Source: a virus
Taxonomy: Duplodnaviria > Caudoviricetes
Strand: one strand, 5' to 3'
Length of the DNA stretch: 64,000 nt
Virus record (IMG/VR): IMGVR_UViG_3300033075_001021
This document shows, piece after piece, positions 7,986 to 8,122 of this stretch. The notes below the pieces were generated by a model. The model was not told the DNA's origin. It was given only the letters and a program-made list of their open reading frames with translations, and did no database searches. Made by a program: the position numbers and the translations under genes. Within the stretch, counting starts at the first letter, position 1; each line of letters begins with the position of its first letter.

Positions 7986-8016
7986 AAAAAACCCCAGCTA
8001 TACTCTAGACTGGGGC
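7986..8016 (-). terminator. attenuator terminator of tRNA operon 2
   Basis: GCCCCAG-loop-CTGGGGT then T run. Confidence 0.85.
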
Positions 8017-8041
8017 TTAATGTTATTATTAGATTTCAAAT

Positions 8042-8122
8042 TTATAACATAGGAATCCCAGTCGTGTTAGATAACACTAGCACACACAATACAAGGAGCA
8101 ATATGTTTGATAAATTTTTCAT
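8042..8122 (-). CDS. leader peptide 2 (MKNLSNILLLVLCVLVLSNTTGIPML)
   Basis: 10 consecutive L/V/C codons; GACTGGG complementary to terminator CCCAGTC. Confidence 0.8.
   Translation of the reverse strand: MKNLSNILLLVLCVLVLSNTTGIPML

Follow-up and report, generated by a model that had tools for sequence, protein, structure and literature searches.

A probable leader-peptide attenuator ahead of cysteine, valine and leucine tRNA genes in an uncultured giant phage

The stretch of DNA considered here, a window of 64,000 nucleotides from the IMG/VR virus record IMGVR_UViG_3300033075_001021 (Duplodnaviria; Caudoviricetes), is a tRNA-rich region of an uncultured giant phage with Bacteroidota-like promoters. 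Our subject is a compact unit on its minus strand in which a promoter, a short leader open reading frame (ORF) and an intrinsic terminator stand ahead of tRNA genes for cysteine, valine and leucine (hereafter the L/V/C unit; the coordinates of all features are collected in Table 1). An earlier note on this DNA, made from the letters alone, had proposed that the unit is a transcription attenuator, and we follow that proposal here through the codon content of the leader, its paralogues and relatives, and the RNA structures between the leader and the tRNA genes.

Promoter, leader frame and codon run

The promoter of the L/V/C unit, which we take to fit the Bacteroidota -33/-7 consensus, contains a 24-nt core that sits inside the pattern TTTG, 19 nt, TAnnTTTG and that recurs in exact copies at 2628, 8144, 29528 and 39433 of the minus strand, where chance would be expected to give none. 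The leader ORF (8122-8042) begins about 33 nt downstream of the -7 box, which places a short ORF directly after the promoter, as is expected of an attenuator; A-rich initiation regions that lack a Shine-Dalgarno (SD) sequence, such as the one ahead of it, are typical of Bacteroidota. Codons 8-17 read TTG CTC CTT GTA TTG TGT GTG CTA GTG TTA in both the sequence and the ORF list, exactly as had been claimed, and all ten specify Leu, Val or Cys ahead of Cys, Val and Leu tRNA genes, so that the candidate regulatory codons match what the operon would supply. Given that L, V and C together make up 14.7% of the residues in the window's long ORFs, ten in succession have a probability of P ~5e-9, on which a chance ORF was rejected, and the value is P = 1.3e-4 even given ten hydrophobic residues; among the 42 long ORFs of the window, the longest run made of L, V and C only is 5.

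The window holds three such codon-matched units, all with a near-identical promoter of Bacteroidota type: the L/V/C unit, a unit whose leader is matched to Phe, Glu, Asp and Ala (F/E/D/A), and a unit matched to Trp, Ser, His, Ile, Met, Asn and Arg (W/S/H/I/M/N/R, or W-type), the corresponding tRNA genes of which follow down to a terminator at 24543. A fourth unit, with the run K/Y/T/Q/P/G (K-type) before Pro, Gln, Tyr, Thr, Gly and Lys tRNA genes, is known here from relatives, and the four sets together partition the 20 amino acids. Behind the copy of the promoter core at 39433, the fourth in the window, stands no codon-matched ORF, and after about 270 nt come two tRNA-Met genes; the spacer behind this copy contains conserved hairpins that are seen also in the relatives L013 and L016 (L numbers denote loci throughout).

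Relatives were retrieved by the promoter core together with the L/V/C-leader pattern, which yielded 17 IMG/VR loci and 29 metagenome loci and, in all, 30 distinct leaders (11 L/V/C, 4 F/E/D/A, 7 W-type and 8 K-type). When the best segments of the 30 leaders were scored against the four tRNA sets, the resulting 4x4 matrix was diagonal, with scores of 9.5, 8.0, 18.1 and 16.6 for own sets against <=4.5 off the diagonal. Among the 305 small ORFs of the window, its three leaders are likewise the top scorers for their own sets, the L/V/C leader being the single top scorer for Cys, Val and Leu.

At greater distance, the closest GenBank phages are uncultured huge phages with 25-39% protein identity, one related metagenome contig measures 343 kb, and a search for DNA similarity to GenBank phages with positions 7400-9900 as the query gave no match. 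One distant phage, the 635-kb uncultured LR745206.1, has a CCA-adding enzyme 39% identical to that of the window and carries 61 tRNA genes in four plus-strand blocks within the region 341500-408300 (loci L048-L051), which were located by an Rfam tRNA search of the record, the region around the CCA enzyme holding a single tRNA. Its blocks are sorted H/F/W/K/R/S, M/E/Y/I/G/A, N/R/L/V/I/T/M and P/D/Q, differently from those of the window, and ahead of each stand a small ORF and an intrinsic terminator, with segments near the ORF ends that match terminator arms. The three leaders that were scored reach 9, 21 and 8 for their own blocks against <=6 for the other blocks, and the fourth, read by eye, draws 9 of its 11 run residues from its own set. 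Leu and Val tRNAs are grouped in this phage with Asn, Thr, Met, Ile and Arg, and the leader of that block mixes exactly those residues. Since LR745206.1 sorts its tRNA genes in another way and its leaders follow that sorting, leader composition appears to track the tRNA set and not the function of a peptide, and among the comparisons made here we regard this as the strongest evidence on that point. In block 2 of the same phage a tRNA-Met lies between promoter and leader, an arrangement also found in relative L010.

The earlier note had remarked that the leader peptide superficially resembles a signal peptide, which would hide it in annotation. The resemblance extends to a basic N-terminus (K2), an 11-residue hydrophobic core and a polar tail and goes no further, since only 9 residues follow the core and there is thus no mature protein; such leaders stay unannotated or would be called hypothetical, signal-peptide-like small proteins. 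These same features could be taken to mean that a working product, a small hydrophobic or secreted peptide, is made from the ORF, and that the terminator behind it is an ordinary one and the tRNA genes are its neighbours by coincidence. The core is too short to span a membrane, however, the paralogous leaders behind the same promoter are polar, and the first tRNA-Cys, which starts 4 nt after the U-tract, therefore has no promoter of its own. The runs of the L/V/C family contain 112 L/V/C residues, 4 S/T and no I, F, M, A or W, and their variable positions interchange L, V and C (CTC/GTC; GTA/TGT/GTG/GTC). Substitutions so confined fit membership in the tRNA set and, with polar S/T tolerated, are the opposite of what selection for a hydrophobic peptide would produce. 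A signal peptide or small membrane protein was rejected on core length, the missing mature domain, the S/T substitutions and the polar paralogues, and we consider a functional peptide of any such kind extremely unlikely.

Terminator, antiterminator and the position of the ribosome

Between the leader ORF and the first gene to be regulated stands an intrinsic terminator, as an attenuator would have it. The hairpin (8018-7989) with its U-tract (7991-7986) has a folding energy of -16.6 kcal/mol (z -3.3), begins about 23 nt after the leader stop and ends 4 nt ahead of the tRNA-Cys at 7981; it was located by a custom scan and is missed by a scan with an 8-nt loop limit. Across the L/V/C family, 94% of cells in the terminator are paired, compensatory changes are found in 5 of its 9 pairs and 0 of 500 shuffles were as good, and a strong terminator follows the stop of each of the 30 leaders at a distance of 20-29 nt.

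The alternative pairing put forward in the earlier note is exact: GACTGGG (8063-8057) is the full complement of CCCAGTC (8014-8008) within the terminator 5' arm. When the terminator 3' arm is left out, the segment 8068-8006 takes the form of a bipartite hairpin (-15.9 kcal/mol, z -3.85) whose inner helix takes in the final two sense codons together with the stop codon's first base; this predicted antiterminator and the terminator are nearly isoenergetic and mutually exclusive. The same outer helix closes the hairpin in 10 of 10 other members of the L/V/C family, with differing inner helices and z values of -2.0 to -4.95, and in 11 of 11 members one and the same place in the ORF gives the best duplex with the terminator 5' arm (p <= 0.04 in 10). 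Of the antiterminator cells 88% are paired, against 18-54% when the partner is slid, and the compensatory variants are GCUGGG:CCCAGC in L002 and L020 and UCAGGU:ACCUGA in L042, with a G.U pair retained in the L001 group.

Two relatives set the RNA apart from the reading frame: in L020, of the L/V/C family, a 1-nt deletion shifts the frame and CUGGG is retained, and in L036, of the F/E/D/A family, UCGAG is retained in another frame, which argues that the segment is constrained as RNA. Constraint of this kind is also what one would see if the ORF were untranslated and the element acted as RNA only, be it as a hairpin for the processing or stability of tRNA precursors or as a protein- or RNA-binding switch, with the open frame incidental; the terminator hairpin, abutting the 5' end of the tRNA, could indeed influence processing by RNase P. 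Yet the ATG-to-stop frame is open in 11 of 11 members although their AT-rich sequence is dense in stop codons, the variable run positions stay L/V/C in the leader frame only, the match to tRNA sets is one of codons and recurs in all paralogues and in LR745206.1, and no Rfam family was matched, T-box included. We therefore judge an RNA-only element highly unlikely.

Control by a leader peptide asks for an alternative pairing that shares the terminator 5' arm and that a ribosome at the end of the ORF can occlude, and here position, stability, compensatory changes and a footprint model agree on such a pairing. The model assumed a ribosome footprint of -15 to +13 nt around the A site, and transcripts ending just before the terminator 3' arm were folded with the footprint masked as a representation of the kinetics. 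With the A site at codons 2-16 the 5' arm is sequestered in these truncated transcripts (P about 0.7-1.0), and with the A site beyond codon 17 toward the stop it is freed (P 0-0.5), the switch point coinciding with the end of the regulatory run in all four leader families. A sensor of general translation capacity, in which any slowing before the stop would open the gate and the L/V/C run would only bias the sensitivity, finds some footing in this model, where a ribosome anywhere in codons 2-16, or none at all, leaves the antiterminator intact, and in the N-terminal codons (K, N, S, I) that lie outside the L/V/C set and are common to all four leader families. Such a sensor would need no amino-acid-specific run, whereas the four paralogous leaders and the four of LR745206.1 each have a run restricted to their own block, and we think it improbable.

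The shared promoter of the paralogues, the 11 leaders with an L/V/C-only run, the covarying antiterminator and terminator, the geometry of the ribosome and the distant phage with its own sorting together bear out the proposal that we set out to follow. On this comparative and structural evidence, the L/V/C unit is likely to be a ribosome-mediated transcription attenuator, one that responds to how much charged Leu, Val and Cys tRNA is available and gates tRNA genes. We infer translation of the ORF, stalling, the kinetic switch and the direction of regulation from sequence features, conservation, covariation and the match between codons and tRNA set. The strong Bacteroidota-type promoter would give rise to a transcript whose first feature is the 26-codon ORF. 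With ample charged Leu, Val and Cys tRNA, a ribosome would reach the stop codon at 8044-8042, melt the inner helix of the antiterminator and cover the GGG of GACUGGG, and the terminator 5' arm would be left free; the terminator hairpin (8018-7989) and U6 would then form, and transcription would end 4 nt before tRNA-Cys. Were a cognate tRNA scarce, uncharged or damaged, the ribosome would stall within codons 8-16, the segment 8063-8008 would fold into the antiterminator hairpin before the terminator 3' arm exists, and RNA polymerase would read into tRNA-Cys x2, tRNA-Val x3 and on into the Leu block. The outcome would be a demand-driven feedback on tRNA supply, the phage probably reserving synthesis of the Cys, Val and Leu tRNAs for times when ribosomes are slow at those codons. 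The CCA-adding enzyme and two RNA ligases of the window indicate an investment in tRNA upkeep, and we count them in favour of the attenuator.

Several observations weigh against this account. When the complete leader is folded at equilibrium, the terminator is favoured for almost every placement of the ribosome and most members do not switch, so the switch must be kinetic; kinetic switching is usual for attenuators and is assumed here. The state with no ribosome sequesters the 5' arm too (P 0.69) and is predicted to be antiterminated. A protective 1:2 hairpin within the ORF can be drawn in two registers, in which 73-78% of cells pair and covariation is not significant, and the W/S/H/I/M/N/R paralogue has a weak antiterminator. 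The 11 members of the L/V/C family are related, and the features that they share are therefore not 11 independent events; the antiterminator covariation itself rests on few independent events. A formal count of that covariation was not significant in the shuffle control on a MAFFT alignment that misaligns region 2 of L042, and so understates it, and RNAalifold on the MAFFT alignment recovered the terminator alone. The unit of L014/L015 has Cys and Leu tRNAs, and no Val tRNA was detectable in it although four Val codons persist in its leader. Lastly, transcription of the Leu block may also start, independently of the attenuator, from an internal promoter at 6828.

Isoacceptors, the reach of the gate and the phage background

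The earlier note had also taken the use of five synonymous Leu codons to suggest that individual isoacceptors are sensed, each Leu codon reporting one downstream tRNA-Leu in a codon-by-codon checklist, as opposed to a sensor at the level of the amino acid. The codons are present and correspond one-to-one to five anticodon types in the window (TTA, TTG, CTC, CTT and CTA to TAA, CAA, GAG-like, AAG and TAG), and CTG and a CAG tRNA are both absent; as a rule, isoacceptor sensing did not hold up. Five distinct Leu codons in six draws have P = 0.05 from the codon usage of the window alone, which is borderline, and relatives, with 3-5 distinct Leu codons, break the mapping in both directions: L002 carries a CAG tRNA though its leader lacks CTG, L004 and L008 carry a CAA tRNA and lack TTG, and the leader of L019 uses CTC although no GAG tRNA accompanies it. 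The rare codon CTA (8.8% of Leu codons) occurs in 11 of 11 family leaders, with tRNA-Leu(TAG) in every Leu block covered, and CTC is found in the subclade with a GAG-type tRNA (the window and L012); the leader in LR745206.1, by contrast, has CTC though its block is without a GAG or AAG tRNA, and is without TTG though the block has CAA. Synonymous sites in the run are unusually conserved, which RNA pairing could equally explain, and a modest bias to rarer synonymous codons (P 0.03-0.08) is not decisive. The Val codons of the window are GTA, GTG and GTG, with no GTC or GTT, so that Val(GAC) goes unsampled, and ARAGORN cannot read the 8-nt anticodon loop of the GAG-like tRNA. On balance we find isoacceptor-resolved sensing doubtful. 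The same hesitation applies to its most far-reaching form, a tentative and rather unlikely one, in which the leader would be a codon-resolved checklist of tRNA integrity: single codons, rare CTA and CTC included, would report single tRNA species, and the four units would detect the part of the tRNA pool lost to a host anticodon nuclease or to starvation and re-synthesise that block alongside the CCA-adding enzyme and RNA ligases.

As to what lies downstream, the earlier note had counted two Cys, three Val and seven Leu tRNA genes, and ARAGORN returns Cys x2, Val x3 (TAC, TAC, GAC) and Leu x6 (TAA x2, CAA, TAG x2, AAG). The seventh, Leu-like gene (6464-6551, minus strand) is 93% identical to a relative's tRNA-Leu(GAG) and has one extra base that makes an 8-nt anticodon loop (CCGAGAAG), and since ARAGORN assigns it no anticodon, the label GAG holds by homology only. 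The homologue in L012 has a normal 7-nt loop, and the copy in the window may be a pseudogene or a frameshift-type decoder. A custom scan found no other minus-strand terminator between 7991 and 2459, and read-through transcripts could thus run through the whole block. The internal promoter at 6828, which L012 shares with the window and which L004 and L008 lack, has no counterpart that could serve as an alternative input to the Cys x2 and Val x3 tRNAs. The genes behind the attenuator are tRNA genes with interspersed small ORFs and an HNH gene, and not the genes of amino-acid biosynthesis, transport or charging that attenuators are expected to control.

Eight tRNAs of amino acids that normally have a short variable arm (Cys, Val, Glu, Asp, Asn, Ile, His and Met) carry a long extra arm and measure 84-91 nt, and near most of them lies a gene of ordinary length for that amino acid. 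U73 and the GCA anticodon are retained in the long-arm tRNA-Cys, and relatives carry one at the same place, directly after the L/V/C terminator; one possibility is that the long-arm tRNAs are structural variants that evade tRNA-targeting defences. A tRNA-Gln(TTG) lies outside the expected K/Y/T/Q/P/G unit, where it closes some 950 nt free of ORFs that have a consensus promoter of their own at 3755, and the ORF just upstream of the W-type promoter ends in an extreme His/Gly/Asp-rich C-terminal tail.

The window is AT-rich, with a G+C content of 30-42%, and contains 45 tRNA-like genes and one transfer-messenger RNA (tmRNA), all on the minus strand according to ARAGORN. Its Pfam matches are a CCA-adding enzyme, two RNA ligases (one of them T4 Rnl1-like), an ATP-dependent DNA ligase, an HNH endonuclease, an ATP-grasp protein and a TonB-dependent receptor; the CCA-adding enzyme and the three ligases, beside the tRNA blocks, are a toolkit for tRNA maturation and repair. 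The receptor, with Plug and beta-barrel domains, is unusual cargo for a phage and is consistent with a Bacteroidota host. The phage-encoded tmRNA scores 64.8 bits in Rfam, and its tag peptide ends in ...LAVA. An amber-reading tRNA with the anticodon CTA (Pyl in ARAGORN) is present also in the relative L005, and an ochre-reading TTA anticodon occurs in L036, which hints at stop-codon suppression or recoding in this phage group.

Table 1. Features of the window discussed in the text, with positions counted from its first letter.
Feature	Position	Strand	Description
Promoter	8144..8185	-	-33 TTTG (8185-8182), 19-nt spacer, -7 TATATTTG (8162-8155); contains the 24-nt core
5' untranslated region (UTR)	8123..8148	-	short, A-rich, without SD sequence; putative transcription start
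Leader ORF	8042..8122	-	26 codons and TAA stop; frame open in 11 distinct sequences
Putative regulatory run	8072..8101	-	codons 8-17, L-L-L-V-L-C-V-L-V-L
Predicted antiterminator hairpin	8008..8063	-	outer helix GACUGGG (8063-8057):CCCAGUC (8014-8008); inner helix AUGUUAU (8050-8044):AUAACAU (8026-8020)
Intrinsic terminator	7986..8018	-	9-bp G+C-rich stem and small inner stem, then U6
tRNA-Cys(GCA), first gene predicted to be gated	7894..7981	-	long variable arm; starts 4 nt after U-tract
tRNA-Cys(GCA), tRNA-Val(TAC) x2, tRNA-Val(GAC)	7153..7473	-	no consensus promoter or terminator between these and the attenuator
Internal consensus promoter (at 6828)	6821..6852	-	TTTG, 20 nt, TATATTTG; ahead of a 73-aa ORF and the Leu block
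Leu block	4984..6551	-	GAG-like tRNA (6464-6551), then Leu TAA x2, CAA, TAG, AAG, TAG; small ORFs and HNH endonuclease gene interspersed
F/E/D/A unit	2453..2669	-	same promoter, 28-codon leader (ORF 2594-2508), terminator, then Asp, Phe, Glu, Ala tRNAs
W/S/H/I/M/N/R unit	29334..29569	-	same promoter, 32-codon leader (ORF 29494-29396), terminator
Fourth promoter copy and two tRNA-Met genes	39145..39456	-	
Long-arm tRNAs	7894-7981, 7231-7316, 1386-1473, 2361-2448, 27158-27245, 27806-27889, 28042-28132, 38981-39066	- (all)	
tRNA-Gln(TTG)	2693..2765	-	
ORF-free stretch	2770..3755	-	
His/Gly/Asp-rich C-terminal tail of ORF	29600..29700	-	
CCA-adding enzyme	30784..31992	-	
T4 Rnl1-like RNA ligase	19081..20262	-	
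Second RNA ligase	16428..17495	-	
ATP-dependent DNA ligase	17534..18913	-	
TonB-dependent receptor	34048..36015	-	
tRNA with anticodon CTA	36967..37039	-	
tmRNA	40900..41256	-	

Relation to known systems

The leader families considered for comparison were Leu_leader, Trp_leader, His_leader and Thr_leader of Rfam, together with the T-box. At gathering thresholds, the Rfam matches in the window are to tRNA, tRNA-Sec-like and tmRNA models only, with no leader family or T-box among them, and at permissive thresholds all matches in 7960-8200 fall far below their cut-offs (Trp_leader, 12 bits against a threshold of 41); a T-box or other known riboswitch was rejected on the absence of an Rfam match. 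In common with the trp, his, phe and thr leaders, the phage unit is predicted to have a ribosome at the stop that occludes the 5' strand of the antiterminator, and its terminator lies directly before the first structural gene. It differs from them in having no match at the Rfam gathering threshold, no established protective 1:2 hairpin, and a long bipartite antiterminator hairpin with the stop codon in its inner helix. With T-box riboswitches it would share the sensing of tRNA status and a terminator whose read-through is set by an antiterminator; a T-box, however, is untranslated, binds one uncharged tRNA directly and controls genes of aminoacyl-tRNA synthetases, transport or biosynthesis, whereas the candidate sensor of the phage unit is a run of several codons that is predicted to be translated. 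In mycobacteria, leaderless short ORFs with polycysteine have been described as Cys-responsive attenuators (bioRxiv 10.1101/834739). They resemble the phage unit as Cys-codon-enriched short ORFs that lie upstream of an operon and act as amino-acid-responsive attenuators, and differ from it in controlling Cys-related protein-coding operons on a bacterial chromosome, where the phage unit would control tRNA genes.

The structural features of leader-peptide attenuators are present in the phage unit, and the proposed control of tRNA genes is the respect in which it would be novel; full-text literature searches, the coverage of which leaves out most subscription-journal papers, found no description of leader-peptide control of tRNA genes. 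Leader-peptide attenuation is textbook control of amino-acid biosynthesis, and tRNA genes are generally treated as constitutive or growth-rate controlled. If our interpretation is true, giant phages would gauge the speed of decoding directly at the ribosome and set their tRNA supply by it, with a defined subset of the amino acids for each unit and all twenty for the units together, which would bear on why huge phages sort their tRNA genes by amino acid. It would also offer a concrete mechanism by which a phage could respond to host shut-off or to tRNA-targeting host defences (for background, see PMC10264068; bioRxiv 10.1101/2024.01.02.573894), and it would provide synthetic biology with compact, modular and codon-addressable sensors.

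The closest analogues are the multivalent leaders of the branched-chain amino-acid operons. The enterobacterial ilvGMEDA, ilvBN and leu leaders are leader-peptide attenuators of this multivalent kind, and the leader of the leu operon is known for its rare Leu codons, which the modest rare-codon bias of the phage leader recalls. The phage unit has in common with them a short leader, here predicted to be translated, with a run of Leu/Val(/Ile) codons and a hydrophobic, signal-peptide-like product, as well as mutually exclusive antiterminator and terminator structures in which stalling at the regulatory codons would favour read-through. It is set apart by its phage setting, its Bacteroidota-type promoter and SD-less initiation, by the lack of similarity in sequence or to Rfam models, and by a set that includes Cys and not Ile, after the phage's own sorting of its tRNAs. 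Above all, the genes that it would regulate encode tRNAs and not biosynthetic enzymes, so that the output would feed back on the supply of tRNA where that of the ilv and leu leaders feeds back on the supply of amino acids.

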